Shown here: piece after piece, positions 11,396 to 48,327 of the stretch | Layout: each line of letters opens with the position of its first letter | Position numbering within the stretch: position 1 is the stretch's first letter | DNA from: Amphiscolops sp. MND2022 | Taxonomy: Eukaryota | Length of the DNA stretch: 64,000 nucleotides | Reading direction: 5' to 3' | Assembly (NCBI GenBank): GCA_964187785.1 | Contig: OZ076409.1 | Coordinates: 33,234,001 to 33,298,000 of the forward strand | Program-made: the position numbers and the translations under genes | The notes under the pieces: generated by a model | The model's input: only the letters and a program-made list of their open reading frames with translations | Database searches by the model: none | What the model was told of the DNA's origin: nothing

Positions 11396-11413
11396 ATCCC
11401 TCTGTGGTCGCCA
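11396..11413 (-). promoter_or_regulatory. Primer-binding site, tRNA-Arg(TCG)-like
   Basis: TGGCGACCACAGAGGGAT on the minus strand, identical to 48310-48327. Complementary to a tRNA 3' end ...UCCCUCUGUGGUCG-CCA, resembling metazoan tRNA-Arg(TCG). Confidence 0.8.
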
Positions 11414-11428
11414 AAAAATGAGGTCTCA

Positions 11429-12201
11429 TGTAACGGCAAGCAGTTATCGGTCGCTTAACACGTTAACAGAGGTGGAGGAACCTGCAGGAATGGGTGATTC
11501 GCTCGGGACAGGCGCCCATCGCCACAGATCCATTTTGCCTCCAGGGGTGAAATACGTCCCGGGGCCGCGGGTGCTTCGACGAATACTGTCCAACCGGTCC
11601 TAGTCTTTGATTGCTAATAGTAACGGGCATCTTTCTGACTCTTTAAAGACCACCGCTTAACTAGCATATAAAAACAATGCCAAGAATAAGGTAAATTTCC
11701 AGTTCCAGAGTGACATGTGATTAAGATCTAAAATTGGGGAATAAGATCTAAACTAGCGCTAGCGCTACTGAATACAGCCAAAATCACTGAAAATACATGA
11801 AAACAGGCACGAATATGGCAAACCACACAGCTAAAAAGCTGGGGCGCAGGGGCTCCAAGCACCAAACAAGGATCTTTAGGCGAAAGGACTCATTTTTACG
11901 GTTTCCGCTACATAGGGTAGCATAATGCTGAAAATCTATAAAACCGGTGTTAGCACCTCAAAAAGAGTCTATTTTCAGTCCTTCTTGCCGTCTCTGGCTT
12001 CTGTCATGGCGGCGCGCCCGTGTTTTTGCTCGTTCTTGCTCTTTGTTGTCGAAGTACCTGCCAATTTCGTGGAAACAGCGAAAAGAGCAATCATATGCTC
12101 AGTGCCACGACACACATCGGATTAGAATTTTTGACAAAATTTCTGAACATGTCAAAGTTGCAAAATCGGTTGATATTGCTGTACCAGAGCTTGCCGTTAC
12201 A
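11429..12201 (-). repeat. 5' LTR (773 bp)
   Basis: TGTAAC...GTTACA; near-identical to 4662-5432. Confidence 0.95.
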
Positions 12202-13693
12202 TGACATAAGTTAACCCAGCTAACAAGCTGGGGGTTTCCACCGGCACTAATTATGCGAAATTCGGACTGCATGTTCTGGAAGGTTTTCTTCTCATTTCCA
12301 AAGAAGGCAGTACGCAGCTCTGCATTTGTTGAAATACAAGCTGTGAAAGCACGTCTGTTTTGCTGGTTAAACACGTCTTTTCACACGTCCGCACGCTTCC
12401 GCACTTTTTGCGGGACTGGTACCTGACCTGCCTCTGCTGTAAGACACTTCGAGCTTGAAGGAATTTTTGGTCCCTGTTATCACATCGTTTTTGGTGCATC
12501 ATGGGGATTCGTTACACATTCATCAAAACGGCTATAACTGATAATTGTCACTATGCATGTAAATATCTGCATATTTCAAACGTTTTGAATGTTTTATTGC
12601 TTTCAACATTCAGTCGTACAGTTACCGATTATAACTTGATAAAAATATTAATTTGTCTGAATGATCTGTCGGCAAAATATTTCGTAAGGTATTGTGAGTT
12701 TAATTTTTACTGGCTTCTGACGGCCCTCGTTTCCACCAACAAGAAAGAAACTGCCTTCAGGTGCAATTTGGTACAGATGCGGCGTATGCTGCAGCCTTTG
12801 ACGGTTGGTTAGGTAGTTTTTCCCGAAAGAAAAGTCAAAAGTTGCTAGTTTGGTTGACTTTTTTTTCAAGTTTGAAGCTTTTCGTCCCAGCTTTCTGACA
12901 AAAAGTGAGACTGTTAGCTTTATACACGCGTAGGCATGCTGGTATATTTTCATGGAATACTGCCTAGTCATGAACAATAAGCAATTAACTTGGATGCGAA
13001 GAATCGAGAAACGATGTGCAATGTTCCGAGTCGAAAGTGAAAAAAAAGAGACTGCGATGAATGTAAAGACTTTGTAAACCGATATAGATCGAGGTACAGC
13101 AGGTGAGGATGAACCAGAATGATAAGTTGAGTGGAAAATTTTGCCTGTTGTGTGTAGGCCATTTAGGTAACGAAAAAGCCTCACCCACAATTGAATTATT
13201 CATCTTTCAAATACAATCATACATTTTAAATAGCACACTGCGGCCTACGGTGTGAGAACAGTTGTAAAATGCATACTTGAACAGGTTTTCAAAAGTGAGA
13301 AATTGACGTCATCGTAACATCTAGCAACATTTTTGATAAGTGCTACAAAACAATTTTTACAGACAGTTAAACATTTCATCGTTTCCAAAGATCATTGAGC
13401 GATATGGTTAAGATAAAAGATTTTTCTGAGCGTGATTTTTACCAGTTTGAAGATGATCGATGCACTGCTATTAGTTCTTTGAAAATGATTGTTGGGTGCT
13501 GAAAATTAGTTAGTTTTCTAGCTTTAAGTCTCAATTCCATGAATCATGTCCCAGAAGAACGATTCAGTCTTCCAGGACAAAATGCATTGCTTTTTTGAAA
13601 TTCAATTTGAAATTCTTATGAAATTTTTGACATTGTTGATACAAATGAATTTTTCAACAGTATAATACGAAAAAAGGTGTATCGATCCCCTAT

Positions 13694-15190
13694 AGTAGTA
13701 TGCGAAATGCCTATCCTGATCAGTCAGACCATCAAATTAAGCATATTTTCAGGGCAAATCATCTAAAATTAGTCAATTTTCGCAACTAAAAATTAACAAA
13801 ATAAAAATCACTGAAGAAAAATTTTCATTGAAAATGTTTGTCACAAGGAAAAAATCACTAACCTCTACGTTGCTGTGTATGGTAATAAAGACAATTTTTC
13901 GGAATGAAACGTAGCAATCAAGTGGAAACACCCTTTTACATGGTATTATTATAAAACTTGAACAACAAATGCGCACAAGTGGAAACAATCCAAATTTATA
14001 TCTAACCGTTACAAAACGAAATGTGAAGCCAGTTTTGCTGTATCGGAAGCCAGCGTTGCTGTATTCGAATCCAGCGTTGCTGTATTATTTCCGACAAGTT
14101 TAGAAAAAACGATAACATATTATATTCTTATCAGTTTTTCTAAGCTTGTTGGCTTTTTCACCATGTTAAAGCATAGTAAGAATTTGAATTCCGACGAAAA
14201 CAAATATGATGTCATCTAGCCGAAGTGTGATGTTAACCTCGGTGCAAGTGAAAAAAGATACAAAACCATTTTAACGTTTTCATCTTGAACAAACAGTTTG
14301 GCTCAAAATATATATCAACTTACCGAACCACATGGAAAAATAAAAGATATCTGCGATTATGTGGCACAAAAGCAGGAGGATCTGAACAGAGACAATCAGT
14401 TGATTAACATTGCGTATTTAACTGAACTGGCCAATCGTATAGAAATTGTTGAAGAGTCTATTGTTCGAACACACATCATTTTTGCGACTAATATTTTGGA
14501 AACCTTGAAGAACATAACAGAGAAACAGGAGAAACGACGTGAGATAATGAAGACGTTTAGTGCAGTGCAACTCCAAAATGATGTTAAAACCAAAGAAAAC
14601 GCAAGCGGGCGGAAGTAATACTCCATACAAACGTCAAAACTCACTTGAAAAAGTAATCTACAAACAAATGATTGCAAACATTGGTGTTGGAAGTAATTTT
14701 AAATGTTGTAGTAATTCTATCAAAAATTAACTTTTCATTCAAAGCGTTTTTAGACTGAAACTTGAAACCCTTAAACATATGCATATTCATGGTAGAGATT
14801 ATAAAAATTTCAGAAAACCCTACATTTGATACATCATTGGAAAGGTCTCTAAACGCCAATGATGTTAAAACATTTTCATCATAATAAATGTCTCATTAGT
14901 TAGGTTATTCAAGTGAACAGCTGAAATTAAGGGAATATCAGGACCTAAATAATATAATAAAGAGTCAAGAAAAAATGGCCGAAATAATCCATTCCAAAAA
15001 AGTAGATTTTGAAAATGAATTAGATTCCTTATCAGGAGATACGTTTTCATCAAAAACGAAGAGTTTTCTGTATCTTGAACCCAGCAATCAGCACATGTGA
15101 AAACAGGTGTGCATATTGGGTTTTTCTCCAGTTTAAAAAGAAAAAAAATTGTTCAGAACAAAAAGATATATTCATGGAAAAATAACTAAA
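13694..15190 (+). repeat. Polinton left TIR (copy 1), about 1.5 kb
   Basis: Reverse complement of ~32945-34440 (e.g. gaattagattccttatcag vs ctgataaggaatctaattc). Inner boundary approximate. Confidence 0.85.
14298..14618 (+). CDS. Hypothetical 106-aa coiled-coil-like protein encoded within the TIR (copies at 18572-18892 + and ~33500-33828 -)
   Basis: Open in both left-TIR copies. The homologous frame SIVRTHIVFATNILENLKKITEKE is present in the right TIR. Non-ATG start. Confidence 0.45.
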   Translation: MAQNIYQLTEPHGKIKDICDYVAQKQEDLNRDNQLINIAYLTELANRIEIVEESIVRTHIIFATNILETLKNITEKQEKRREIMKTFSAVQLQNDVKTKENASGRK

Positions 15191-15488
15191 ACAAACAAAG
15201 CTTAGAAAAAACTTCGAACAAAATTTTTTTCTCAAGTAAAATAATTTTCATTCATGTCTGTGACAAATTTTAATACCCACAAAATTAAAAAAATATTTTT
15301 CACTAAACTTTTGAAAAATAATTATTGAAAAACTTTTATTTAAACTATTTGTTCTTTAATAACAAGAAATGAAGAATTGCAGTAGTTGTAATTTAGATTA
15401 TAAAAAATCCTCAAACTCCGATCGTTATAAATCAGTAAAAAAATCTTGGAAAAATAAATCAGTATTTTTGTAAAAATGTGATTTTCAT

Positions 15489-16613
15489 ATGCCCTTATCA
15501 GATAAAAGTTCTCATTTAAGTTCAGATGAAAATGAATACCGCACCGATAAAATGTGGTGTGAAGATTTAGGTAAATATAAATCTGATAAAATAAAATACT
15601 TCCAAAGTGAAATTCACCTTTTAAAAAGTCATCACCATCAACGAAATATCTTTGGTCAAGATGGCTTCGGTGTGGAATCATTTGTGAAGGAAAAAACATA
15701 CATCAAACTTAAAACAAATCCAACTGAAAGTCAACTAGAACAGGTCAATGAATTACTAAGTAAAAGTTACGTTCCCCGATATATATATATCGATTGAGAT
15801 ATTTAGCTAAATTTTCAAAAAACGGTAATGGAGAAAAAATGTTTTTCACAAATGGGTTAAATCAGATTTTAATTACAATCCCACGAATCAAAATGTTCAC
15901 AACACATTATTACAGAAACTAGATGATGAACAATTGGAAGGAACAGGTTTTGTGTTTCAATATATTGTCGATGTTATATTAGAAATATATAAATATATAT
16001 AAATATAATTATAGAGTTTATATATAATGATATTCAAGCTTCTTCATACATTGAGTTGCCAGAAAAATATAAGAGTAAAAAAGCAAATATAATTATAAAA
16101 AATAATGATCAATTATGTTTTCGTGGTGTATCTCAGCGTATTTGTATCCCGTTGAGGATAAAAAGAATAGAACATCAAAATTTGTTATACATATGCCTAC
16201 TTTATGTACCGAAGGTTTAGAATTCCCTATGGAAGTTAAGTTTGAAAGACTTAATAAATTGAATACCGGAGGTCAGCAATGTGGTATAAATGTTTATGAA
16301 CTCACTGGAACAGTGCTAACACCAATCCATACAAATACGAACTAGATCAACCACAAATAGATTTGTTGTTGTGTGAAAATCAATATTTTCTAATAACATA
16401 GTTGCATTGTCTAATTAATATTAAATCACGCATGAACAATGTACGTAGGAGATGTTTAACAGTTTTCAGTTCAAAACCAGTTCTAATTGATCGTATAGAA
16501 AGATGTATAAAACAGCAACCAACTAAAATCAGTTTCAGTTGGAAGGATCACTTAAAATTCGAAGACCACCACATGAAAATACCTTGACCTGATAAAGTGT
16601 ATGCAGATTTCGA
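15489..16613 (+). pseudogene. Truncated duplicate of the 5' part of protein-primed DNA polymerase B
   Basis: Same sequence as ~19477-20615; cut at the duplication junction. Confidence 0.85.
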
Positions 16614-17967
16614 CTACGTCTTTTCACACGTCGTTTCAATACGTCTTTCCACACGTCCGCACGCTTCCGCACTTTTTGCGGGACTGGTACCTGACCTGCC
16701 TCTGCTGTAAGACAATTCGAGCTTGAAGGAATTTTTGGTCCCTTTTATCACTTCGTTTTTGGTGCATCATGGGGATTCGTTACACATTCATCAAAACGGC
16801 TATAACTGATAATTGTCACTATGCATGTAAATATCTGCATATTTCAAACGTTTTGAATGTTTTATTGCTTTCAACATTCAGTCGTACAGTTACCGATTAT
16901 AACTTGATAAAAATATTAATTTGTCTGAATGATCTGTCGGCAAAATATTTCGTAAGGTATTGTGAGTTTAATTTTTTCTGGCTTCTGACGGCCCTCGTTT
17001 CCACCAACAAGAATGAAACTGCCTTCAGGTGCAATTTGGTACAGATGCGGCGTATGCTGCAGCCTTTGACGGTTGGTTAGGTAGTTTTTCCCAAAAGAAA
17101 AGTCAAAAGTTGCTAGTTTGGTTGATTTTTTTTTCAAGTTTGAAGCTTTTCGTCCCAGCTTTCTGACAAAAAGTGAGACTGTTAGCTTTATACACGCGTG
17201 GGCATGGTGGTATATTTTCATGGAATACTGCCTAGTCATGAACAATAAGCAATTAACTTGGATGCGAAGAATCGAGAAACGATGTGCAATGTTCCGAGTC
17301 GAAAGTGAAAAAAAGAGACTGCGATGAATGTAAAGACTTTGTAAACCGATATAGATCGAGGTAAAGCAGGTGAGGATGAACCAGAATGATAAGTTGAGTA
17401 GAAAATTCTGCCTGTTGTGTGTAGGCCATTTATGTAACGAAAAAGCCTCACCCACAATTGAATTATTTATCTTTCAAATACAATCTTACATTTTAAATAG
17501 CACACTGCGGCCTACGGTGTGAGAACAGTTGTAAAATGCATACTTGAACAGGTTTTCAAAAGTAAGAAATTGACGTCATCGTAACATCTAGCAACTTTTT
17601 TGATAAGTGCTACAAAACAATTTTTACAGACAGTTAAACGGTTCATCGTTTCCAAAGATCATTGAGCGATATGGTTAAGATAAAAGATTTTTCTGAGCGT
17701 GATTTTTACCAGTTTGAAGATGATCGATGCACTGCTTTTAGTTCTTTGAAAATGATTGTTGGGTGCTGAAAATTAGCTAAAAATTAGTTTTTTAGCTATA
17801 AGTCTCAATTCCATGAATCATGTCCCAGAAGAACGATTCAGTCTTCCAGGACAAAATGCATTGCTTTTTTGAAATTCAATTTGAAATTCTTATGAAATTT
17901 TTGACATTGTTGATACAAATGAACTTTTCAACAGTATAATACGAAAAAAGGTGTATCGATCCCCTTT

Positions 17968-19352
17968 AGTAGTATGCAAAATGCCTATCCTGATCAGTCA
18001 GACCATCAAATTAAGCATATTTTCGGGGCAAATCATCTAAAATTAGTCAATTTTCGCAACTGAAAATTAACAAAATAAAAATCACTGAACAAAAATTTTC
18101 ATTGAAAATGTTTGTCACAAGGAAAAAATCACTAACCTCTACGTTGCTGTGTATGGTAATAAAGACAATTTTTTGGAATGAAACGTAGCAATCAAGTGGA
18201 AACACCCTTTTACATGGTATTAACATAAAACTTGAACAACAAATGCGCACAAGTGGAAACAATCCAAATTTATATCTAACCGTTACAAAACGAAATGTGA
18301 AGCCAGTTTTGCTGTATGGGAAGCCAGCGTTGCTGTATTCGAATCCAGCGTTGCTGTATTATTTCCGACGAGTTTAGAAAAAACGATAACATATCATTTT
18401 CTCATCAGTTTTTCTAAGCTTGTTGGCTTTTTCACCATGTTAAAGCATAGTAAGAATTTGAATTCCGACGAAAAAATATATGATGTCATCTAGCCGAAGT
18501 GTGATGTTAACCTCGGTGCAAGTGAAAAAAGATACAATACCATTTTAACGTTTTCTTCTTGAACAAACAGTTTGGCTCAAAATATAAATCAACTTGCCGA
18601 ACCACATGGAAAAATAAAAGATATCTGCGATTATGTGGCACAAAAGCAAGAGGATCTGAACAGAGACAATCAGTTGATTAACATTGCGTATTTAACTGAA
18701 CTGGCCAATCGTATAGAAATTGTTGAAGAGTCTATTGTTCGAACACACATCATTTTTGCGACTAATATTTTGGAAAACTTGAAGAACATAACAGAGAAAC
18801 AGGAGAAACGACGTGAGATAATGAAGACGTTTAGTGCGGTGCAACTCCAAAATGATGTTAAAACCAAAGAAAACGCAAGCGGGCGGAAGTAATACTCCAT
18901 ACAAACGTCAAAACTCACTTGAAAAAGTAATCTACAAACAAATGATTGCAAACATTGGTGTTGGAAGTATTTTTAAATGTTGTAGTATTTCTATCAAAAA
19001 TTACCTTTTCATTCAAAGCGTTTTTAGACTGAAACCTGAAACCTTTACACATATGCATATTCATGGTAGAGACTATAAAAATTGCAGAAAACCCTACATT
19101 TGATACATCATTGGAAAGGTCTCGAAACACCAATGATGTTGAAACATTTTCATCATAATAAATGTCTCATAATTTAGGTTATTCAAGTGAACAGCTGAAT
19201 TTAAGGGAATATCAGGACCTAAATGAAAAAGAAACAAGGGAAAATGGCCCAAATATTCCATTCCAAAAAAGTAGATTTTGAAAATGAATTAGATTCCTTA
19301 TCAGAAGATACGTTTTTATCAAAAATGAAGAGTTTTCTGTATCTTGAACCCA
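17968..19352 (+). repeat. Polinton left TIR (copy 2)
   Basis: Starts AGTAGTATGCAAAATGCC, preceded by CCCTTT (mutated TSD). Confidence 0.85.
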
Positions 19353-19476
19353 GTAGAAATGAAGAATTGCAGTGGTTGTAATTTAGATTATAGAAAATCC
19401 TTAAACTCCGATCGTTATAAATCAGTAAAAAATCTTGGAAAATTAAATCAGTATTTTTGTAAAAATGTGATTTTCA

Positions 19477-22400
19477 TATGCCCTTATCAGATAAAAGTTC
19501 TCATTTAAGTTCAGATGAAAATTAAAACCGCACCGATAAAATGTGGTGTGAAGATTTAGGTAAACATAAATCTGATAAAACAAAACATTTCCAAAATGGA
19601 ATTCACCTTTTAAAAAGTCATCACCATCAACGAAACATCTTTGGTCAAGATGGCATCGGTGTGGAATCAATTGTGAAGGAAAAAACATACATCAAACTTA
19701 AAATAAATCGAACTGAAAGTCTTTTAGAACAGGTCAATGAATTACTAAGTAAAAGTTACTTTGCCCGATATATATATCAATTGAGATATTTAGCTAAATT
19801 TTCAAAAAACGGTAATGGAGAAAAAATGTTTTTCACGAATGGGTTAAATCAGATTTTATTTACAATCACTCGAATCAAAATGTTCACAACACATTATTAC
19901 AGAAAATAGATGATGAACAATTGGAAGGAACAGGTTTTGTGTTTCAATATATTGTCGATGTTATATTAGAAAGATATAAATATACACAAATATAATTAAA
20001 GAGTATATATATATCATGATATTCAAGCTTCTTCATACATTGAGTTGCCAGAAAAATATAAGAATAATAAAGCAATTATAATTATAAAAAATAATGATCA
20101 GTTATGTTTTTTGTGATGTATCTTAGCGTGTTTGTATCCCGTTGAGGATAAAAAGAATAGAACATCAAAATTTGTTATACATACGCCTACTTTATGTACC
20201 GAAGGTTTAGAATTTCCTATGGAAGTTAACGATATACCTAAGTTTGAAAGACTTAATAAATTGAATACCGGAGGTCAGCAATGTGGTATAAATGTTTATG
20301 AACTCACTGGAACAGTGCTAACACCAATCCATACAAATACGAACTAGATCAACCACAAATAGTTTTGTTGTTGTGTGAAAATCAATATTTTCTAATAACA
20401 TAGTTGCATTGTCTAATTAGTAATAATTCACACATGAACAATGTACGTAGGAGATGTTTAACAGCTTTCAGTTCAAAACCAGTTCTAATTGATCGTATAG
20501 AAAGATGTATAAAACAGCAACCAACTAAAATCAGTTTCAGTTGGAAGGATCACTTAAAGTTCGAAGACTACCACATGAAAATACCTCGACCTAATAAAGT
20601 GTATGCAGATTTCGAATGTTTTAGTGAACCTAAAAATAACTCCAAGTTATTCTTTGAACAAATTCCAACTGCTGTAGGTTGTTATCTAACTTCTCCATTT
20701 GGAAACAAGTATTACTCATACTTCGGCGAAGGGTGTGTAAAATGGTTTGTAAATGAAATGTTGACACTAGAAAAAAGTGTATCGGAGTGCATTTTAAAAC
20801 AAAGATTCCACTAAAAATATGTCCTCAAGAAGAAGTAAAGTTCCAACAATTCGAGGTGTGTTGGTTGTGCGAACAGCCTTTTTCTCAAGACAGAGTTCGA
20901 GATCACGATCATCTTAAGGACACTAACTACCGAGGAGCAGCCCAGTGTAAATGTAACATGAAGGTAAAACAAAAGCAATCAAGTTTTGTTCCTATATTTT
21001 TCCACATCTTTTCTGGATTGTCAACTTATTTTTGAACAACTCTTAACACAAGCTTTGAAAATTGGGTATGAACCAAAAAAATTTCCAAAGTCAATGTAAA
21101 AGTATGTTAGTGTACAAGTAGGTTGTTTGATTTTTCTTGATTCATACCGTTTTTTTCTTCTAGTTTGGATAAATTAGTTAGGAGTATAAACAGTGTCCCA
21201 AAAACGCAACGCGCCTTCGGCATGGATGAAAATTGTTTTGATGATTAAATATTAAAAAAATATATTGCTTTGTCCCCAAGAACAATTCAATCTTATCAAT
21301 TTTCAAGAACCATTAAAACTAACAAAAGAAGACTTTTGGTCAACACTAAAACAAGAAACCCCTCCAGATGAAAAACTTAATCGTACACAAGAATATATTA
21401 AAAAGTTTAATATAAAGAACGGACAAGAATTAACAATGTTATACTTAAAAATGGATGTTCTACAATTATCTGATGTCTTTGAGAACTTTGTTGAGAAGTC
21501 TACTCTTATGTATGGTATTAATCCATCGTATAGTTACTCAGCACCAGGTTATACATGGAAAACCGGCTTGAAATTGACTAATATAAAAAAAGAAGTATTA
21601 TTAATTTTAGAAAATAATATACATGGAGGAATTTCGAGTGTTTTGGGTGATAGGCATGTTGTATCGGATGTCAACAAAAAAAATCTCATACATTGATGAA
21701 AATATTCTATATGTATGGGCTATGAGTCAAAGTCTTCCTATTGTCGAATTCAAAAAATTACCTTTTATTCCGAATAATTACACAAATAATTACAATCATC
21801 TAGAGCAAATAGTAGAAGATTTCACAAATACCAGATGATAATGAATATGGATTTGTTATAGAATGTGATTTAGATTATCCACAACATATCAAAAAAAGGA
21901 AATTTTTCATTTATGTCCTTATCAAGTAGAAACTAATTGTGAGTTGATCTCAAATTATATGAATTTTATGAAACAACCGATTTACAAACCAACCCAGAAA
22001 CTTGTGTGTGACTTAACAAACAAACAAACATATATGATGCACCACAGGATGTTCAAATTTTACATCAACATGGGTATGAAAGTAACAAAGAGACATAAAT
22101 TCTACCGCTGCAAGCAAATTCCTTGGTTAGCAAAATACATTGATCATAGCACCCAAGAAAGCACCAAAGCAAAAACAAACGTTGAAAAAGTCCTGTACAA
22201 GGTAATGAACAATGCTTTCTTTGGTGAGACTATAGATAACATAAGAGATAGAACCAATCTAGAATTCCTTGATCATTCTCAAATGAATCAAATTTTGAAA
22301 AGACAATCCAAGTTAAGTCGCAAAGGAATGGTGGATCATTATTCTATGTTTAGTGTGTACAAGTTTGATAAAAAAAACAGTCTTTGATGAACGAATTTTT

Positions 22401-24502: not shown

Positions 24503-24545
24503 TGAATGCACCGAAGGCACTTCGCGTAAACAAGGATACAGTTTT

Positions 24546-27585: not shown

Positions 27586-30006
27586 TGAACGAAGTGTTTA
27601 ATTTGTAATGAATGTAGTGAAACTTCGCTGTGCGATGATTGTAGTAATAAAAAGAGACGTAAGAACTGTATCATAATGAAGACAGATTGTTTTTCAAACA
27701 AAAATGGTAAAATGTATGGTACATGCAAAGAATGTTTCAATAAAAAGTTGATGTGTAAATACAGTAATCGTGAATTCAATAAAACATTCTTATCAAAACA
27801 TGTCGAGATGCCTTATAAAAAACTTCATTCGAATAATACCGAAGGCGCTTCGAATATTACCGCAAAGCTGGCTTCGCATAAAATGATAAATCATAATGAT
27901 GAAAATAATAATGATGAAAATAATAGAACAAAAATAGTTGGTCCAACATTTTGTGGTAAGACCCATTTGTTTTTAAACAAATTACAATTAATTCGCTTGG
28001 ATAACCCTGAACAACGAACAAAAATAATAAGCAGATCACCGGAACAATATACAAATACAGCTTTGCTGGCCTTCGGTATAGAAATAGAAGACACTTCATT
28101 GGAAGAAGATGTAGAAGATGGAACAATACAACATTTTCAAAATTGTTGTGTTGTATTTGATGATATGTTGGATAGTACTCGAAAACTAATAGATCCGTTT
28201 TTTACTAGAGGATGACATAATGATTTAGAACTGTGATGATTTTCAACTGTTAGGGAAAGCAACCATTTGCGAGAAACAGGTGGAGGACGGACGGCAACTG
28301 AGCAACCAAACAGTGAACGCTGACTCTGCAAACCGCAAACATGACAGTCTTACCTACTGACAGTCTGGCACCAACTCTAACTCATTTGTTGAACAATTAA
28401 CTGCGTGCAGTGTCGTTAGTCGTTACTCCATATTCACTCGCACAATGTCTAAGCAGCTTCGGTCTGATGTATCCCGTGCGCGCATGTTTGCGTCCGAGTT
28501 TACTTGTTTCGAAGTTGATGGTGCGTTATTATTTTGCAAATTCTGCGAGACGGCGGTAGATTATACAATCAGATCGCGTGTTACTCAGCGTAGTAATACT
28601 GTTAAGCACCAAACCGCTTCTCATAGACAAAAACCCAATCAAACGTTTTTACAGGCCGCTAATACTTCCAAAACTGACAAGTTTACCGCAAATTTGTGTC
28701 AAGCATTGCTTGCCTCTAACATCCCAGTTTATAGGCTTAACTCTCAACCATTTCGGGAATTCCTACACAAGTATACCCAAAGGCAAATCCCAGAAGAATC
28801 CACACTGCGCCAAATCTATATAGCGGCGTTTTACCAGTAGAAATTCGAGAAGCTACAGGCACTTTTCGCTGGGAAACGATTTTGGCTTAGATTCGACGAA
28901 ACTACAGATGCAAAAAACCGGTTAGTGGCTAACGTCCTTATGGGTATTCTGGACAAAAACGAAACTCAAATTCCGTATCTTGTTCAGCTAGTTTTTTTTC
29001 GAGAAAACAGACTATTCGGGCATCTCTCAAAGCATCATTAGCACACTGAAGTTGGTCTTCAAGTGTGGCATTCTTTACGGTAAAATCCTCGTGTTGCTGA
29101 CAGATGGTGCTTCTCATAACAAGAAAGGTCTTTGAGGAATAATTCCGAAACTGATGGAATACAAACTCTTGTGGAGAAAGACAACCGACATCAGGTTGAA
29201 GCAGAACTGAATTGCATTCGCTCAAAGTATGGTCTTCTTAGCAGTTTTTTCCCGCAGTTGCAGAAAAGACTGTCAATCTTGGAATGCATTGAAAAACTGG
29301 ACAAGATAAAATCCCAGCTGTTTCACGATATTGGAAAAAAGAAACTCATTGCTAAACTGGATTGCAGGAAATTCTTCAAGTAGAAGATCAGCTTGTATCC
29401 GGAACACTGATTGAGGGACATTTTCGTGTTCGAAAATTGTCTATGGAGGACATTAGAGCTGCAAAGTTTGCCCCTTCAGCAGCCAATGACGTGGAGCGAA
29501 ACTTCTGCATTTACTCCGATATTCTGAGTTGCAAACGACACGCCCTTACAGAGGACTCTCTGACAAAACTTACGTTTACGTTTTTGTACATAAATTCCCA
29601 ACTGTGAAGTCTGCGTATTTTTGGTTTAATCAACTATTTTTGCAACTATTTCTGATTTTCTGTTGACCATTGTAGTTACTATTTTAGAAGTTTAATGAAA
29701 CTCTTTTCCGTGCGTTATTTATCACAGTCATACTTTAATTTGACTAAAGGCACCATACACAACAATAGTAAAATAATAATTTTTTTCCAACAATCATTGA
29801 GTGATGTAGAACATGTATACAGAGAAATAGCAGGTTTCGATATGTCTTATGATGAATTCAAAAGTTTCTGCAGAGAAGCATGGAATGGAAAATATAATTA
29901 TCTAAAAATAAACAGGCTAGAAGGTAAACACGGGTACAAGTATAAAATATGCAGTGAATCTATTCCGAAGTATAAGTTCTTCAATCCACAAACGGGTCCT
30001 TTTTAA
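27586..30006 (+). pseudogene. Packaging ATPase no. 2 (A32-like) with N-terminal Cys-rich zinc-finger region, split by a hAT insertion
   Basis: IVGPTFCGKT (Walker A), CCVVFDDML (Walker B), FTRG*HNDL before the insertion; YLSQSYF...TIHNNSKIIIFFQQ...MSYDEFKSFCREAW after it (29715-30006). Confidence 0.88.
28230..29712 (+). mobile_element. hAT (CGGBP1-like) DNA transposon relic nested in the Polinton ATPase
   Basis: ORF pieces LFCKFCE...TVKH, LLASNIPVYRLNSQPFREFL, FDETTDAKNRLVANV, LTDGA, KFAPSAANDVERNFCIY. Higher GC than flanks. TIR/TSD not clean, so ends are approximate. Confidence 0.85.
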
Positions 30007-32935: not shown

Positions 32936-32944
32936 CTATTTCCT

Positions 32945-34440
32945 TTAATAGTTATTTTTCATCGATTTCATTTTTTTTCGTCGTTAAAATCACTCATTTT
33001 CGAGAAAAATGAGAAAAACCAATTTTCACATCTATTTTGGCAAGTGCTGATTGCTGGGTTCAAGATACAGAACACTTCATTTTTGATACAAATGTATCTT
33101 CTGATAAGGAATCTAATTCATTTTCAAAATCTTCTATTTTGGAATGGATTATTTGGGCCATTTTTCCTTGACTCTTTATCATATCTTTTAAGTCCTGATA
33201 TTCCCTTAATTTTAGCTGTTCACTAGAAAAACCAGACTTTAAGATGATGAAAAAGCCGGATGTTTTAACATCATTGGCGTTTCGAGACCTTTCGAATGAT
33301 GTATCAAATGTAGGGTTTCTGAAACTTTTATATTCTCTACCATGAAGATGCATATGTTTAAGGGTTTCAGGTTTCAGTCTAAAACCGCTACTAAATTCAG
33401 TCTAAATTTAAAATTACTTCCAACACCAATGTTTGCAATCATTTGTTTGCAGATTACATGTCAAGTGAGTTTTGACGTTTGCATGGAGCTTCCAGTTTTA
33501 CTTCCGCCCGCTTGCGTTTTCTTTGGTTTTTAACACCATTTCGGAGTTGCACCGCACTAAGCGTCTTCATTATCTCACGTCGTTTATTCTCTTTCTCTGT
33601 TATTTTCTTCAAGTTTTCCAGTATATTAGTCGCAAAAACGATGTGTGTTCGAACAATAGACACTTTAACATTTTCTATACAATTGGCCAGTTAGGTTAAA
33701 TACGCAATGTTAATCAACTGATTGTCTTTTTTCAGATCCTCTTGCATTTGTGCCACATAATCGCCGATATCTTCTTTTATTTCTCCATGTCGTTCAATAA
33801 GTTGTTTTATATTTTGAACCAAACTGTTTGTTCAAGATGAAAACGTTAAAATGGTTTTGTATCTTTTTTCACTTGCAACGTGTATTTACTATGCTCAAAC
33901 ATTGTGAAAAAACCGACAAGTTTAGAAAAACCGATATGAAGAATAATAAAATGTTATCGTTTTTACTGGACTTGTGGGAAATAATACAGCAACGCTGGCT
34001 TCGCATACAGCAACGCTGGCTTCGCATACAGCAACGCTGGCTTCGCATACAGCAACGCTGGCTTCGCATACAGCAACGCTGGCTTCGCATACAGCAACGC
34101 TGGTTTCGCATATCGCTTTGTAACGGTTAGATATAAATTTGGATTGTTTCCACTTGTGCGCGTTAGTTATTCAAGTTTTATATTAATGCCATGCAACAGT
34201 GTGTTTCCACTTGAATGCTACATTTCGTTCCAAAAAATTCTCTTTTACTATACACAGCAACATGGAGGATAGTGATTTTTTCCTTGGGACAAATATTTTC
34301 AGTGGAAGTTTTTGTTCAGTGATTTTTATTTCGTTTGTTTTTTTTTAGTTGCGAAAAATGATTAATTTTAGGTGATTTGCCTTGAAAATATGCTTAGTTT
34401 GATGGTCTGGCTGATCAGGATCTGCATTTCGCATACTTCT
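32945..34440 (-). repeat. Polinton right TIR, about 1.5 kb
   Basis: Inverted, noticeably diverged copy of 13694-15190; followed by TSD CCCTAT. Confidence 0.88.
33984..34109. repeat. Tandem repeat, 6 x 21 bp ATACAGCAACGCTGGCTTCGC within the right TIR
   Basis: Directly visible; left TIRs hold 3 degenerate inverted copies (~14025-14087, ~18299-18360). Confidence 0.95.
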
Positions 34441-40327: not shown

Positions 40328-40404
40328 GTGGCATTCAGGCTGCAGTAGACCAGCGGGTTGTACATCGTGTTGCTCATAGCCAGCCAAAAGGAGATGAGGT
40401 ATAT
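40328..40404 (-). CDS. Host class A GPCR exon encoding TM7 (tachykinin/RYamide-receptor-like)
   Basis: ttttgcag|[25 protein letters not shown]|gtaag. WLAMS...YNPxxY signature; phase-2 intron joins to the FREGF exon. Confidence 0.9.
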
Positions 40405-40599
40405 CTGCAAAACAACTTAAATTTAGGCCGAAAACAAAATGAATTGATCAGTTGATATCATGGGCTGAAAATAAATTGGACTAAAAAGCATGGATTTAAG
40501 CATTTAAAAATTCATTACAACAATTACTCATTTTTCATGTTCTTTGTCCAGCTGTATTCAGATCTCATATCCAACAAGACGCCCGCTAAGCACCGGGAA

Positions 40600-40691
40600 A
40601 ACTTCCGCCAAAAATGTAACGTATCAGCCCGGGTTCGAAACCATGACCACGTGTCTACCAGGCAGACACATTACCAACTGTGCCATGGGAA
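40600..40691 (-). mobile_element. tRNA-derived SINE head / tRNA pseudogene
   Basis: Minus strand has an A-box TGGCACAGTTGG and a B-box GGTTTCGAACCC followed by a T-run; no intact cloverleaf. Confidence 0.6.
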
Positions 40692-41658
40692 TAGAATTTA
40701 CTAAGTACGACTTGCTGATCAAGTGAAGGGATCAAGCAGCCGTTACAACTAGAATTGTCAAGTAATTAAAATAGTCAAGTAACTCTAGTGTTACTGGTCA
40801 AGTGAGATGAATCTTGGAGATTTGGCAGAATTTGGAAAAAAACGCAACACAAATCATGATTTTCCTCCACCATTTATGTGGGCGGGAAATAACAAACATT
40901 CTATGGTTTCAAACAACGATAGTGTCAGAATTCTAGGAAAATTGACGTAGTTGAAAGTTGTTTCCGCAGCTGTAACAATTCAACAACAATCTTCAGCAGA
41001 TACCTTTAATGTATTAATGTATAATTTTTTGTTGACCCTCCATGGATATCTTAGTAAGATCTTGGAACAATCTTGGCTAAAGATCTTGCCATGGTATTCA
41101 TTTTGCCATGGTAAGATCTTATCAAGAGAGCCACGTTCCCAAGAAACATCTTCTTAAAAAACTCCTCTTTGGCTAGAAAAAATCCGGGAGGAAGTCAACA
41201 AAACATCTATGCGGTTTTACATTGTTAGACATGACAATTTCCGGTGAGCAAGGTATGAAATGTGATTGAAGAGTCCTGATGCTGTTTATTGGAGTCACTG
41301 ATTAAATTGTTCTATCAATTGCAAAACCGTCGCTAACGACGGCGTCAGAAAAGCCTCGAACTGAATCACTACCCAAAGCGGGGCAACGACCTCCGTTTCC
41401 AGCAGTAATAAGGCTACTGAAGCAAGCTCAAACAAAATTGCAAATATGAATTGACAAAAATTTCTGGATTTCTGATTGTTTCCTGTGTAACTTTCCGATA
41501 GTGGCTCTGAACGTTTGAGAGCATTTTCTCCGTCTCTGGAATCGACAGTAGTGATGTTACAAGTTTTCAAAAGCCCTTGAAACGAGCTTTCATTCGGAAC
41601 ATCCGCATTTCTCGGTCTTAAACAGGTGAGGAGTTATTTGGATTATCGTCAAAATTTC

Positions 41659-42007
41659 GGAGTGGGCGGAAATAAGTCGAAGAAACGGGATCGAAAATCA
41701 GAGTTAGTCCTCAGGTCGACATACCAAATTTTTGAATGGGATCGAAACAACTCGGATCGAATTTTTTATAACGTAGTCAGATATGTTCACATACCCCTAG
41801 TGCCTTGAATGCAGGAGCGAAGCGAAGCGGAGCGACGTGCCATAAGGCCATGCCTCAATGTTGCTACTTGGCGAAGGGAGCGAAGCGACCGAGCCATACA
41901 ACAAATACGATAAAATTCGACCGCATTCCATTCGATCCCTGCAATTCGATCAAAAGGTTCGACCTCTGTCTTTTCGACCAGAAAAATTCGACCTATTTAC
42001 AGCCACC
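41659..42007. mobile_element. Foldback/MULE-type MITE with TCGAA subterminal repeats
   Basis: Imperfect TIR GG..GGAAATAAGTCGAA / TTCGACCTATTTAC..CC; 9-bp TSD CAAAATTTC (41650-41658, 42008-42016). Confidence 0.75.
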
Positions 42008-42113
42008 CAAAATTTCGGAAGCCAGAATAAGTTATCGTAATTTTTCGCAAATTTTTGCATGCAATTTTGTTTCAGCGAGTTGAAGCACTTTGAATATGAA
42101 GACGAGTAGAAAT

Positions 42114-42667
42114 GGTTACCAGTCACTTGGCTTAATACCATTTGGCTTAATTTTTTCGTCGAGTCATTTGGCTTAAAAATTTTAAGCCAAGTGACCACAA
42201 AATTAAGCCAACTCCATTCCAACTCAAGGAATAAATATGTCAACTCCCGGAAATATCATGTGGGGCATATGCGGTGTATGCACGCTCGCCCTCACCGTCG
42301 CAAAGACCAGCTCCCACTACGATCGCTTCGCGATCTTCGTTCCCGCTAGGTCTTTGCTCCTGTTCGACCTCGCTTAGCAAGATGGGAATATAAGCGGCCC
42401 CAAGGGGCCGCAGGGCACTAGAGGAAATGGGGACATATCCGAGGGGTACTTGATATGACATGTTATATTAATACGCTGACTTCGTTATAAAGATAAATTC
42501 GACAAAATCTGCCACGTGTTTTCAACTAAGTGGTTTTAAGTCAAATGACTTTAAGCCAAGTGACCAATACTCGAGACACTTAGCTTAAAAAAATTAAGCC
42601 AAGTGACCAATTGTATTAAGCCAAATGACTTTAAGCCAAATGGCATTAAGCCAAGTGACCATTTACC
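42114..42667. mobile_element. Foldback MITE with TTGGCTTAA subterminal repeats
   Basis: Inverted ends GGTTACCAGTCACTTGGCTTAATACCATTTGGCTTAA / TTAAGCCAAATGGCATTAAGCCAAGTGACCATTTACC; 8-bp TSD GTAGAAAT. Confidence 0.85.
42259..42444. repeat. About 185-bp GC-rich structured cassette (copy 1; copy 2 at ~45346-45530)
   Basis: Two near-identical copies; hairpins GATCGCTTCGCGATC and GCGGCCCCAAGGGGCCGC. Confidence 0.9.
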
Positions 42668-43804
42668 GTAGAAATAAATATTGTTGGGTGAAATGAGCGA
42701 GCCCATTAGATTGAGTATTCTCGGCTGCTTGTACCTAAGGTATAGTGTTCTTTATAATTTTAGAATTTTGTCCATCGTGACAAGATACGATCTTGGAATA
42801 ATGTATTATCTTCCCTAGTTGAGACTACAGGAACTTTTTGCATGCTACAGGCCTGCATGCAGGGTAAATTTTTATGAAACCTAGAAAATTCAGTGGTAAT
42901 TCAGGTGGTAAATCATGTAGAATTACACTGCATTTTTCACTACTGCAGTTAAATTTGAAAATAAATACATCATCACCGACACGACCACTTTGTATTTACA
43001 CTTTGTTTTCTCAACAACTCTTCAGATGTGATCACCGCTTTTCAAATAGGACGCTAAACATGACGCTACTTTGCAGTTTAATACGAGACTGAAGTTATTT
43101 TGCATTAAAATGGTTGTTAAACTGAGAGCGATTTATTTGCTTCTAAAGTTAGAACTGCTCCTTAGTGAAACCTGCAAAATTTCAAGGACTAAAATTGCCG
43201 TCAAAACTTTGACGAATCTTTCAAGCAGCTTGATAAAAGTCGAATACAACAGGTAAATATTTTCGCATGAAAGTTTCCGCAAGAGTTTTATAAAATCATA
43301 ATAAAAGTTGCTGGCAACATTAAAGTACATGCAAAAAGTTCAAGAAGTTCGAGCAAGGGTTGGTAAGATTCTTAGTAAGAATCTTGCCATGGGATCCATG
43401 GTTGCCAAGATGTGGTAAGAATTTGACAGGATCTTGCCACGACAGCTAAGATGCTAGTTAGAGGGTCAACACGGGATACCAATACATTGTATTTACCTTC
43501 AGAAACAGATTTGTATGAATTATGCTTTTGAAACAAATCTTGCATGCGTTCGGCATTTAAAAACACTACCATCAGTGCAGATTAATGAAATAAAACAAAT
43601 GTGCACCCTAGTTGGTGAGAAATGCGATCGTTGCTTTGGTGTTACAAGATCCTCACTTTTGATACATTTCTTGGAAAATCTTGTTATCGCATTCCATGTC
43701 TGAATCTTATAGAAATGCACTTTTCAAATCTTTTAGGTAAATGTTTTCTTCAACCCCTAGGGCTCCCTTAAACAATATAGAAAGCAAGAAACATTTTTGA
43801 AGAT

Positions 43805-44003
43805 CTTTATCTGACTCAACGATCCTACAGGGCACGTTAAATGTTTTTTTTTCTACAGAGTATGCATTACCAATCAAGAATGCTTAAAACCTAAAACTGA
43901 CAACTTTATCTAACTCAACGATCCTACAGGGCACTTTAAATGTTTTTTTTTTCTACAGAGTATGCATTACCAGTCAAGAATGCTTAAAACCTAAAACTGA
44001 CAA
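43805..44003. repeat. Tandem duplication, 2 x ~99 bp
   Basis: ctttatctgactcaacgatcctacagggcac...aaaactgacaa repeated. Confidence 0.9.
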
Positions 44004-44907
44004 AATTGCCCGAGTCCTAAATACCCGGAGATACTTGCCATATCAACTTTCACAATATCGTATACTGAAATTTGAAATCAAGCCATTGTAAGCCAGTTGA
44101 AATTCGGAAATACTTTTCTCTTATTTCTTTTGAATCATCAACTTGCTGTTGTCGAAGACAAAAAAGACAAAAATTTCAAAAAACAATTGTCACAGGCTGC
44201 CGCCTGTGACGGATCTATGATTACGACAACAGCGGACGGACAAGAGATCATGCCAGGTACATTGTCGACCTTTTAGAAAAAGGTTCAACGAACTCTTAAC
44301 GAAACTTACATTTACTTTATGTCCTACACCTTAGTATATTTTACAATACCAATTTAGTAATGGAGCTTCTAGTATTAGTCTGTTAAGTGAACGATTTGGT
44401 TATTTTCAAATCAGTTGTTGAAACTTGTCAAAAGACGCTGTAAATGTTGCATGTAAACTGATGCAAGTTAAATACAACTGTAAGACAGTAACGGAAACGT
44501 GTTCAAGTGATGTAGAGTGTTATTCCGGAAACGTCACTTGTGCACGTAGTCGCGTCCAATCAGAATTCACCATTTGTTATTTTATTGATGCTTTTGTATA
44601 TTATTGGCCGAATAAGGCCAATTGACGCAACTCTACTTCTTACTAGTATTTCAGTTAAACGGACAATTCCGGCTGTTTCATGTAAAGATGTAATTGTGAG
44701 GTTAATTATTTATTTTTATAACTAACTAATATTTATGGTGTTTGTATTTTACGCGTTAGATAATCACTTCTGTGCAGTTATAATCAACTGATACCCCAGA
44801 CTTGGTAATACTTGCCGGTGAAGGCCATATACCTATAAATCAATGGTGTTTACTTGATATGAGGCAAATATCCCTTTCAGGCCAGATTGTGTAAAGTGCA
44901 GTACCAC

Positions 44908-45982
44908 GGGGAACAGGAATAACGTCTAAGGAATAACGTCTAAAAGACCACCGGGAATAACGTCTAAAGGAATAACATCTAAATCTGAAATGAACGGGAA
45001 TAACGTCTAAAAAAAACGGGAATAACGTCTAAAAGTGGAATAACGTCTAAAAAGCGGAATAACGTCTAAAAAGAGGAATAACGTCTAAAACTGACATACG
45101 TTTAAAATGCCAAAAAACCATCAAAATACGTCTGAAAAACGGGAATAACGTCTAAAATTGGCAAATACGTCTAAAACGTCAAAAAATCATCAAAATACGT
45201 GGCAGCGGGAAGAACGTCTGAGGAATAACATCTAAAAACAGAACGGGAATAACGTCTAAAATAATCATTTTTTGAGACTAGCGTCTAAAGATTTAGACGT
45301 TATTCCTGTCTCGAAAAAGGCTCTCTGAAAGCGAAAATATCAAATTGTGGGACATATGCGGTGTATGCACTCTCGCCCTCACCGTCGCAAAGACCAGCTC
45401 CCACTACGATCGCTTCGTGATCTCCGTTCCCGCTAGGTCTTTGCTCCTGTTCGACCTCGCTTAGCAAGATGGGAACATAAGCGGCCCCAAGGGGCCGCGG
45501 GGCACTAGAAGGAATGGGGACATATCCGAGGCACGTTTTATATTTTAAATCACTTTTTAGTTTTAGATCTTAAACGATTTATTTTTTCCAATTTCATGTG
45601 TTTTTCCCGTTTTTCAGTCGTATTTTGATGACTTTCGGATATTTTGGCGTTTTTTTCAGGATTCTACTCGTTATTCCTTTTTCGGACGTATTTGCATAGT
45701 TTTTTGATATTTCGGACGTTTTTTTCGATTTAGGTATAAATACATATCGGACACATAGACTTTTGCTCGTATTCCGTGGCCTTCGATAATTTCATAGTTC
45801 ATTCCTTAAAACTAGAATAAGGGAAGAACTTTTCAGCATCAGAAACAATATTTCAAAATCGGGAATAACATATAAAAAAACGGGAATAACGTCTAAATCT
45901 TTAGACGTTATTCCTGAAAAATGAGTAAAATTTAGACGTTATTCCTTTAGACGTTATTCTTTAGACGTTATTCCCGCCCCTA
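44908..45982. mobile_element. Foldback/MULE-type element with GGAATAACGTCTAAA arrays
   Basis: More than 10 direct copies on the left, inverted TTAGACGTTATTCC copies on the right; 9-bp TSD CAGTACCAC (44899-44907, 45983-45991). Confidence 0.85.
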
Positions 45983-45999
45983 CAGTACCACCTGTACTA

Positions 46000-46810
46000 A
46001 ATTGAATTAGAGTAAAGATAAGAAACGTGATAAAAATACTTCTATTGAGTAAACGTTTTCGACGTTTCTGTCATTGTCAAATTCTAAAAACAAATTATAC
46101 ATAAAACAATAAAAAACAACTGTAAGTTTTCAAAAAATGTAAACATTAAAACAAGTAATCCAGCACACTGGTTAACAGCTATCTTTACTTACACATTGAG
46201 ACATCGAAGCTCATAATTTCTGACAGCCAAACATAACGTTTGGGACGGCTAAATTCTTATGGTTAACAATCGCTGTCTGTATTCGTCTCGGGTGTTTAGA
46301 GCCGGTTTCCGTCTGTCAATGTGGAGTGCCTCCAGCGTCTGAAATGTGACTTGGTCTCCTGCGGTGTCAATAATTTTCCAAGAGTAACTGCTTGAGCCTC
46401 CCATGCATGTTTTCAGATGTTGTCCGAGGGGCTGCGATTCTCTATGATGTTCATTGAAACGAGTAGAAAAATGTCGGACAGTTTGACCAACATAGCTGAG
46501 CTTGCACCCAGAACATGTCATTTCATATACTACTCTACTTTTTAACATTCTAGAGAACCCACTCTTTAAACTCGGCAATAGGTTTTTCAGTTTGTTCGTT
46601 GTAAAAATCGGCTGTATTGGTATGAGTTTTCTGAGTTTTTGAACAAATTGATCAGTAACCCGCCCCCTGTACTGAATAATAAAGTGGTCTTTCTTTGTTT
46701 CCTTGTCCCTGTGTGCATTTCCAACACTGTTGGAAAATCTCTCTCTGCATTTCTCGAGGGTATCTAGCACGATACCATCAGTAAACTCTTCCGGATATCA
46801 GTTCTTCTTG
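46000..46810 (-). mobile_element. 5'-truncated Penelope-like element: GIY-YIG endonuclease C-terminus plus 3' tail
   Basis: ORF 46249-46770: VVYEMTCSGCKLSYVGQTVRHFSTRFNEH...LEALHI..RKPALN (CxxC within GIY-YIG, PLE type); upstream N*YP remnant. Confidence 0.88.
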
Positions 46811-46982
46811 GCTACCATTCTTCTTGGCTGAATTAGCCCTGACTACCATAACTGTTGCAATGTTAGATTAATTATCCAGATAAGGCCATAGAACTATGTT
46901 TGTCCTAACATGTAATCATATATTCTCATGCTTGATTAAACTCAGCAGTGCTGGCGTGGCGGAGCGTGCCATCTCTACATAC

Positions 46983-47013
46983 CTGCCATTGCGAAGAATA
47001 CTTGTTGACATCC
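46983..47013 (-). CDS. Candidate 31-bp micro-exon of the same GPCR (extracellular loop 3)
   Basis: ttccatcttag|G GAT GTC AAC AAG TAT TCT TCG CAA TGG CAG|gtatgt. Ends in phase 0, giving DVNKYSSQWQ-IYL, comparable to the tachykinin receptor ..IQQVYL. Confidence 0.5.
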
Positions 47014-47354
47014 CTAAGATGGAAGTGTTTATTAGAATACAATAGTTTGTTTGAAGTTACGGCTTACACTTTATTACCCTCTAAAATGTTGCTCACGTGA
47101 CCCGCCAATTATGTAGAAAATGTGAGTGTCACCTTTCAGGGATATATACTCTTATATAAAGAAGCAAAGGAATGAAAGCATTCTTGTTTCTTATTATTTT
47201 CCGACACCTCAGTTTAAAATGGGGAGGAAAATCATCATCTGTGTTGCGTTTTTTTTACTAATTCTGCCAAAATTCCACTTTTATTACTCCACTTGCTCAG
47301 TCTCCCTACTCAGCCTTCATACTGAGAGTATCCCTACTCAGCCTTCATACTGGC

Positions 47355-47497
47355 AATAATATCTAAAAACAAAAATAAGAATAAGATATAAAGGGAATAA
47401 GATCTAAAATTTCAGGACGGGAATAAGATCTAAAGGGAACAAGATCTAAAATCACAAAATTTTAGATCTTTTTCTTTAGATCCTATTCCCCCTCCCA
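47355..47497. repeat. Short foldback relic of GGAATAAGATCTAAA repeats
   Basis: Several direct copies followed by inverted TTTAGATC copies ending ATTCCCCTCC. Confidence 0.6.
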
Positions 47498-47575
47498 AAA
47501 TAGCTATGGCTCAGTGGGTGAAGGCGAAAAGGGAGGAAAATATCCCGGTGCTTAGCGGGTGTCTTGTTTTACCAA

Positions 47576-48293
47576 TGTAACGTCAGCCACTGGCATGACA
47601 AAATTTCGATGAAAATTTCGAAATGTGCGATATCAAAACAGCACATTCAAAATGGCCGACCTAGCAGGTACCAAGACGTGAACGAGAGAAAAAAGTGCGC
47701 GAAAGCAGAACAAAAAAGAAAGCACGTGAGAAGATATCAAAAAAAGAAAGAAGAACGCCATGGAAAAGAAGGAGAATTCAGCAGAAGAAAAGGTCAATCC
47801 AATCGGAATGTTGTGCCATCTCTCCGAAAAGACACCCGAATATGAAGAACGATGCCAGAGGCTGAGTCGATGAAGAACCCTAAACTGTAATGTTGTTGGT
47901 GCTTATCCCCGTATTTTGTTGTCATTTATCAAGTATTTGGGTGATGTTAGACCTACTAGGTCTCAATTTTAGAACTTATTCACCAAATACAATGTATTTT
48001 AGCTAGACACCTTTTTGGACCTCAGAAGTATGTAGGAAGACATAGGAACGTGCTAGAAACCTTAGGAAACGTTTTTACAGGCTTGTGGGGCGTGTCCGGA
48101 CTTTGAGGGTGCCGGCGCGTCGCTTCGGAGCTCTAAATTGAGAAGCCTCCTTTGACGATAGAAAAGTCCCCCTAGGAGACCATTTTGGGATTAAAAACTA
48201 GTGCTTAGGGATGTAGTAAGACAAGGGTCTCCTGTTTAAGCACCCTAGGCATTGTCCCTCTTCCTAGATGTGCGTCGCTAGCCGGTCGTTACA
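47576..48293 (+). repeat. 5' LTR (718 bp)
   Basis: Direct repeat of 62975-63689 with scattered substitutions. Confidence 0.95.
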
Positions 48294-48309
48294 TCTGGAA
48301 TAGTTTTTA

Positions 48310-48327
48310 TGGCGACCACAGAGGGAT
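48310..48327 (+). promoter_or_regulatory. Primer-binding site, tRNA-Arg(TCG)-like
   Basis: TGGCGACCACAGAGGGAT, 16 nt downstream of the LTR end. Confidence 0.8.

Follow-up and report, generated by a model that had tools for sequence, protein, structure and literature searches.

Integrases of retroviruses and of retrotransposons with long terminal repeats (LTRs) are taught to trim 2–3 nt and to leave target-site duplications (TSDs) of 4–6 bp, and in Ty3/Gypsy elements the spacer between the LTR and the tRNA primer-binding site (PBS) usually measures 0–5 nt. Here we describe two elements, A and B, in a 64,000-nt stretch of DNA from Amphiscolops sp. MND2022 (assembly GCA_964187785.1, contig OZ076409.1, positions 33,234,001–33,298,000, forward strand; hereafter the window). 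Judged by sequence, A and B are defective members, from sister subfamilies, of one giant Ty3/Gypsy lineage. The lineage shares with Ty3/Gypsy the gag-PR-RT-RH-IN order (protease, reverse transcriptase, RNase H, integrase), the YIDD motif, a CX2CX4HX4C knuckle, an HHCC and DD35E integrase with GP(F/H), TG..CA LTRs, a tRNA PBS and a polypurine tract (PPT), but differs in a spacer of 11–23 nt, a TSD of 3 bp, a size of 14–19 kb, a macrodomain-like Pol tail and an SGNH-like second open reading frame (ORF). This is a real and new form of Ty3/Gypsy end processing. We give a probability of about 65% to the reading that the lineage is primed in the standard way, carries the spacer on the right end of its cDNA, nicks it off with its integrase at the CA of the LTR end, and joins with a 3-bp stagger.

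Among plant elements (n = 13,566), TSDs are 5 bp in 93.4%, 4 bp in 6.2% and 6 bp in 0.4%, in the figures given by PMC6317226. The Troyka elements or Kuafuorterviruses, as described in PMC12440569 and PMC11673190, are animal LTR elements with PR-RT-RH-IN order and 3-bp TSDs like ours. Membership in Troyka was nevertheless rejected, since in those descriptions five defining features fail and only the 3-bp TSD is shared: Troyka has CG..CG termini (CGCCA..TGGCG) where we find TGTAAC..GTTACA, LTRs of 100–400 bp and interiors below 7.7 kb where we find LTRs of about 686–790 nt and elements of up to 19 kb, a CX2CX8-10HX4C zinc finger where we find CX2CX4HX4C, IADD, VADD or LADD in place of YIDD, and an integrase without GPF/Y where ours has GP(F/H). 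Sireviruses (Ty1/copia) have a conserved intervening sequence between LTR and PBS that lies on the cDNA end and, according to the authors, is removed by integrase (PMC2829016). In that account, however, 5 nt including the TGG is called unusually long, whereas here 15–16 nt excluding the TGG separate LTR and PBS in an element of another superfamily. Tf1 of fission yeast, in the account of PMC11042837, has extra sequence at the cDNA right end and tandem elements sharing one LTR, which are also seen here, but it is self-primed, and its extra DNA is a single-stranded PBS copy rather than a templated spacer before a tRNA PBS. The Vesta elements of bdelloid rotifers resemble the lineage in an extra ORF after pol with a GDSL/SGNH domain (PMC5408684), a paper whose main text has no mention of their PBS or TSD. 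The full-text literature searched, which left out Repbase, GyDB and most subscription papers, yielded neither a spacer this long nor a Gypsy element combining TG..CA ends with a 3-bp TSD; the table of PMC6317226 may hold long spacers. Elements A and B are laid out as follows, in window positions.

4659–4661 (−): element A, downstream TSD copy, TCA, 3 bp, one of the TSD pair
4662–5432 (−): element A, 3′ LTR, TG..CA, 13-bp terminal inverted repeat, no spacer behind it
5433–5444 (−): element A, short PPT CCCGGGGAGAGA, directly against the 3′ LTR
5445–11395 (−): element A, interior of a non-autonomous deletion derivative, with leader, gag start and 3′ region, no pol
11396–11413 (−): element A, 18-nt PBS, complement of tRNA-Arg(TCG) positions 59–76
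11414–11428 (−): element A, 15-nt LTR–PBS spacer TGAGACCTCATTTTT, first half purine-rich, T-run last
11429–12201 (−): element A, 5′ LTR, 773 nt
12202–12204 (−): element A, upstream TSD copy, TCA, 3 bp
47573–47575 (+): element B, upstream TSD copy, CAA, 3 bp
47576–48293 (+): element B, 5′ LTR, 718 nt, TG..CA
48294–48309 (+): element B, 16-nt LTR–PBS spacer TCTGGAATAGTTTTTA
48310–48327 (+): element B, 18-nt PBS, tRNA-Arg(TCG)
51251–57841 (+): element B, broken gag-pol with gag, CCHC knuckle, protease, integrase core and macrodomain-like C-terminus
58350–62408 (+): element B, broken second ORF with an SGNH-hydrolase-like domain, the fold predicted on an intact relative
62964–62974 (+): element B, short PPT CCCCGGGAGGA, directly against the 3′ LTR
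62975–63689 (+): element B, 3′ LTR, no spacer behind it
63690–63692 (+): element B, downstream TSD copy, CAA, 3 bp

LTR borders were set by the paired LTRs and 3-bp TSDs, giving an extent of 12201–4662 (−) for element A, whose LTR pair is 99.1% identical, and of 47576–63689 for element B, whose pair is 92.8% identical. The interior of A is 89–96% identical to parts of a pol-coding relative, and the deletion in the gag-pol of B has removed the integrase N-terminus together with RT and RNase H (about residues 1280–2222 of an intact relative). An earlier note on this DNA, made from the letters alone, had pointed to one 18-nt PBS shared by two elements with dissimilar LTR interiors, to spacers of 15 and 16 nt and to short PPTs. 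These observations stand: spacers and PPTs lie where described, and the LTR interiors of A and B show no alignment longer than 27 nt. The identity of the two PBSs is correct and at the same time unsurprising: every cycle renews the PBS from the tRNA, so that related elements are expected to carry identical 18-mers, and autonomous relatives of A and B are 74% identical in RT–RNase H.

The 18-mer, TGGCGACCACAGAGGGAT, was located at 11396–11413 (−) and 48310–48327 (+); the window holds no third copy with up to 3 mismatches (chance expectation 0.02), and the genome holds 3,067 copies. It is the exact complement, over all 18 nt, of the end of the host tRNA-Arg(TCG) with CCA added (positions 59–76), confirming the arginine tRNA supposed in the earlier note. 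The match ends at position 59, the point at which copying in retroviruses is halted by the modified A58. A search with the tRNA T-arm plus PBS complement gave 255 gene-like genome matches, called tRNA-Arg(TCG) by ARAGORN and placed in the tRNA family by Rfam. By this count of pattern matches the primer tRNA gene is itself highly amplified, and 99 of the first 100 matches listed form a tandem array from C9:57537789 onward with a period near 172 nt. On contig C3, a single tRNA-Arg(TCG) gene has a tRNA-Sec gene (L031:938–1023) 425 nt upstream of it.

The same note had offered atypical priming as one way to account for the spacer; the primer would then be a 3′-extended RNA that spans it and is removed by RNase H to leave a DNA end near the CA. 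An oligo(A) tail on the tRNA could pair with the T-run beside the PBS, and this run does vary slightly in length between copies. However, the PBS is a standard 18-nt site, the trailers of the tRNA genes read AC(A/T)TTTT and not the complement of the spacer, and the PBS stays constant across subfamilies whose spacer sequences differ. Pairing of the tRNA with a further site in U5 (the unique 5′ region), spacer or leader did not rise above shuffles (spacer–tRNA fractions 0.10 and 0.68), and four fossil ends, described below, keep the whole spacer without the PBS. An extended primer is therefore very improbable, and the suggestion was not borne out.

The long spacer is a general property of the lineage. 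At 60 distinct exact-PBS sites, a non-random set, it measures 15–16 nt in 54 and ranges from 11 to 23 nt. One site had no recognisable LTR end; at the other 59, none is shorter than 11 nt, so that the LTR does not reach the PBS in other copies. Among the first 30 PBS copies on contig C1, 27 have spacers of 15 or 16 nt and the others of 11, 14 and 18 nt. Partner 3′ LTRs of the copies with 11-, 14-, 18- and 23-nt spacers were not found. In none of 51 cases (30 3′ LTRs and 21 solo LTRs) does the DNA behind the LTR agree with the spacer over more than 1 nt. Control loci of the same genome were read by eye. In other Gypsy families, all 10 copies have spacers of 1–4 nt, with a 5-bp TSD in seven and an unclear one in three. 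Some BEL/Pao elements may have spacers above 10 nt; here 8 of 12 BEL/Pao loci show both LTR ends, and the five clearest have 5-bp TSDs and spacers of 1–5 nt. Since short spacers and 5-bp TSDs prevail in these families, both unusual traits belong to the lineage and not to the host. An unrelated LTR element at C5:43953364–43944167 has the LTR end TA, a directly adjacent PBS and a 5-bp TSD.

TSDs of 3 bp flank 40 of 43 insertions (22/22 with paired LTRs and 18/21 solo LTRs), against 2.4 expected after shuffling; two have 4 bp, both in T-runs, and none has 5 or 6 bp. Of 25 apparent solo LTRs, four were excluded from this count (two were 5′ LTRs whose PBS is mutated, one was a 3′ LTR whose PPT is mutated, and one end was mis-called), as were seven loci without an LTR match. 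A preference for A/T is symmetric, 3 bp outward on both sides (37/39 and 36/39), as for concerted integration. The 4–6-bp TSD typical of Ty3/Gypsy is thus not what this lineage has, and the classification does not rest on it. Words for the LTR end and the LTR start stand exactly 3 nt apart at C1:92082984, C2:74856651, C2:74859596, C4:61585416 and C4:68788570, as if two elements shared one target site. The proposed link between long spacer and 3-bp TSD holds in so far as the two co-occur in one lineage. In Troyka, however, the TSD is also 3 bp and a PBS-like TGG, identified by eye, follows the TGGCG LTR end directly in all three forward-readable elements of the six whose first 400 nt we took from the supplement of PMC11673190. 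Because the Troyka PBS abuts the LTR, a long spacer is not needed for a 3-bp TSD, and the traits can be separated. The 3-bp stagger probably arose by convergence with Troyka. It adds a second route to 3-bp TSDs among LTR elements, so that a 3-bp TSD alone does not identify Troyka.

In the established scheme of reverse transcription, minus-strand synthesis starts at the base before the PBS, and the new 5′ LTR–PBS junction is copied from plus-strand strong-stop DNA, itself copied from that minus strand. Since this junction is templated only via minus-strand strong-stop DNA, the cDNA end must bear any spacer that is inherited, and one skipped at initiation would be lost within a generation. The same reasoning is given for Sireviruses by their authors (PMC2829016). 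In the genome, six aberrant 3′ LTRs retain spacer DNA. Four of them, preceded by a PPT (C1:32282814, C7:28930667, C7:28947129 and C9:56834788), carry the full spacer plus 0–2 T but lack the PBS, and continue into DNA from elsewhere in the same family; one of these junctions is an inverted copy of the last 38 nt. Another, at C10:44554143, belongs to a full-length element with a normal 5′ end, and its 3′ LTR is followed by 9–10 spacer nt, a second copy of the attachment (att) sequence (the last 8–9 LTR bases) and the TSD, which suggests slippage on the cDNA end and then ordinary integration. At C13:11977583 the LTR is followed by 5 spacer nt and a 3-bp TSD, with no CA at the join. Such ends are rare against the 2,018 LTR ends of one subfamily.

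The pattern searches for these ends gave 25 distinct hits, of which 18 were dropped or left undecided and seven reduced to five events (L324 and L325 are one junction, L332 and L333 one duplicated locus); the sixth event was found by chance. Dropped were 5′ LTRs with a damaged PBS or a spacer indel (L076, L077, L326, L327, L329, L331, L334, L356, L360, L415 and L417), an inner LTR whose PBS carries a deletion (L357), flanks that match by chance (L328, L355 and L358) and an insertion into the spacer (L362), while L361 and L416 were left undecided. Because six aberrant 3′ LTRs keep spacer, four of them ending at the PBS border, the spacer was likely present on the cDNA end and removed at the CA. 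The view that this lineage must remove a long cDNA overhang is thereby supported, by the inheritance logic as well as by these ends, in the form that does without atypical priming.

Removal could in principle proceed through a 2-LTR circle, along the lines suggested for foamy virus: the ends would first be ligated, and integrase would then cut both CA sites of the junction. Foamy virus integrase cuts LTR–LTR junctions in vitro, as described in PMC1180852, and the terminal inverted repeats here are long (7–13 bp). Yet no spacer-bearing LTR–LTR junction occurs in the first 50 of 135 genomic places listed, the junction pattern is as frequent as its control (135 versus 133), and an asymmetric insert of 15–16 nt would disrupt the junction palindrome, which leaves the circle route quite improbable.

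In the reading we favour, standard tRNA-Arg priming 15–16 nt behind the LTR would leave the spacer on the right end of the finished cDNA, the element's integrase would remove it by a nick at the terminal inverted repeat's CA, and the same enzyme would join the ends with a 3-bp stagger. In choosing where to cut, the enzyme may read the att sequence instead of measuring from the end. All 51 ordinary 3′ ends finish precisely at the CA, although 17 of 20 spacer variants contain a CA nearer the cDNA end, and no use of a spacer-internal CA was seen among the hits (0/11 and 0/3). Neither Pfam nor fold searches gave a nuclease or exonuclease domain. Related DDE transposases cut within long flanks, and murine leukaemia virus reportedly tolerates wider spacing. 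That integrase itself cleaves the spacer is, on this genomic pattern, a probable but by no means secure part of the reading.

Integrases of the lineage share two inserted residues between the first and second catalytic aspartates, and two positions past the second they carry Ala in place of Gly (Asp-Asn-Ala); both changes are absent from all 29 aligned outgroup rows listed (sister-clade, metagenome and 5-bp-TSD integrases). Either the long trim or the 3-bp stagger may stem from these changes near the active site. A bolder version, which we hold only tentatively and at somewhat less than even odds, is that a retroviral-type integrase acts like a DNA transposase at one end, cutting at att 15–16 bp inside the cDNA and ignoring nearer CAs, with the 3-bp stagger independently evolved and the two-residue insertion behind one or both. 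If true, an LTR element would here provide a natural and abundant example of 3′ processing that is long and asymmetric.

What may preserve the first half of the spacer is a role as the 3′ arm in a U5 hairpin before the PBS. Predicted folds pair spacer bases, mostly into U5, in 25 of 26 distinct copies, and leave the T-run mostly unpaired in four of five copies tested. In 6 of 12 copies the own spacer beats shuffles at 0.03 or below, and cognate spacers differ from swapped ones at p 0.007 among 12 related copies. As a reason for keeping a long spacer, this predicted hairpin is only suggestive.

The chief rival to cleavage by integrase is that the spacer reaches the cDNA end but is lost by plus-strand stalling or by nibbling of a host 3′ exonuclease, until integrase bound at att blocks it. 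One insertion was joined at +5 without a CA and yet has a 3-bp TSD, and the T-rich end would be expected to fray easily. Tf1 cDNA ends are ragged with the single-stranded PBS retained, in the account of PMC11042837, and some rotifer LTR elements carry 3′–5′ exonucleases, according to PMC5408684. On the other hand, ordinary 3′ ends are exact at the CA, a partial trim is seen in only one of six aberrant ends while four have the full spacer, and no exonuclease domain was found by Pfam or fold search. We consider such loss unlikely, though less so than a circle or an extended primer.

Several points weigh against nicking by integrase as set out above. Retroviral integrases trim 2–3 nt, as stated in PMC12789967, and the +5 insertion could equally reflect partial nibbling or a mis-cut. 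There are few aberrant ends, and they were picked out with patterns biased towards them; one search could return only breaks near the PBS, and these ends could be tandem inner LTRs with later deletions. In the nearest outside relatives, known from metagenomes whose assembled records do not include the LTRs, spacer and TSD are unreadable, so that the integrase changes rest on one lineage. For the hairpin, the difference between cognate and swapped spacers has p 0.09 over six groups, the cognate spacer ranks top in just 2 of 12, and whole-segment z-scores run from −3.1 to +1.0. Models of the accessory regions, described below, are weak overall (mean pLDDT, the predicted local distance difference test, 56 and 52) and extend over just a portion of the proteins. 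Finally, the whole case is built on genomic copies.

The assignment to Ty3/Gypsy draws on several features. The Pol order is PR-RT-RH-IN by Pfam in two intact relatives, with RNase H straight after RT and no retroviral tether domain (RVT_1 ends at residue 1689, RT_RNaseH_2 begins at 1755). The integrase is intact, its best PDB match is Ty3 (E 2.7e-28), and its GPH/GPF module reads GPH in both intact relatives, aligned with the GPF of Ty3. Autonomous relatives of A and B form one supported clade in a quick RT tree of 86 rows, from which, with two named proteins as outgroups, no named Gypsy clade was assigned. The family is young, as RT is stop-free in 33 copies among the matches listed, most within ORFs of 3,000–3,300 aa, and LTR pairs are up to 100% identical. 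A sister clade with 57% RT identity is absent from this genome, metagenome relatives are 50–58% identical and share the multi-ORF layout, and every match in an Atlas search was below 0.9. L176 has a putative spacer of 29 nt. Pol runs about 900 residues beyond the integrase core (L139:8614–9906; window 56954–57841), and its C-terminal region folds like TARG1-type macrodomains (Foldseek E 1e-7), with probably two macrodomain-like units in tandem in the predicted model. The second ORF (about 1,400 aa; L052:3923–8134), which has a similar counterpart in metagenome relatives, combines a helical domain without a match with a domain resembling SGNH/GDSL hydrolases (E 6e-4 to 1e-2). Among the matches listed for the two modelled accessory regions, none was a nuclease fold.

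A thriving lineage that loses 15–16 nt at one end and joins with a 3-bp stagger is a natural test of integrase end recognition and target bending, and points to specific integrase residues. Common pipeline defaults demand a TSD of at least 4 bp or a PBS within 5 nt of the LTR, and pipelines with either requirement would miss or mis-delimit thousands of these copies. Five PBS copies at C1:34043020–34099403, spaced about 14 kb apart, form a tandem array sharing single LTRs, and other inner LTRs occur at L101, L122 and L132.

Elsewhere in the window, the PPT word with its upstream bases is repeated at 6297–6308 (−), about 860 nt ahead of element A's true PPT, and positions 750–1468 hold an older element-A-like LTR fragment, about 81% identical. 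A direct duplication of about 4.2 kb (12367–16613 and 16635–20615) is 94–97% identical, with an inverted related piece at 33011–34440. Fragments at 21869–22387 and 27589–28215, without Pfam support, presumably resemble the polymerase and ATPase of Polintons, and a GIY-YIG ORF of Penelope type lies at 46249–46797 (−; Pfam E 0.004).

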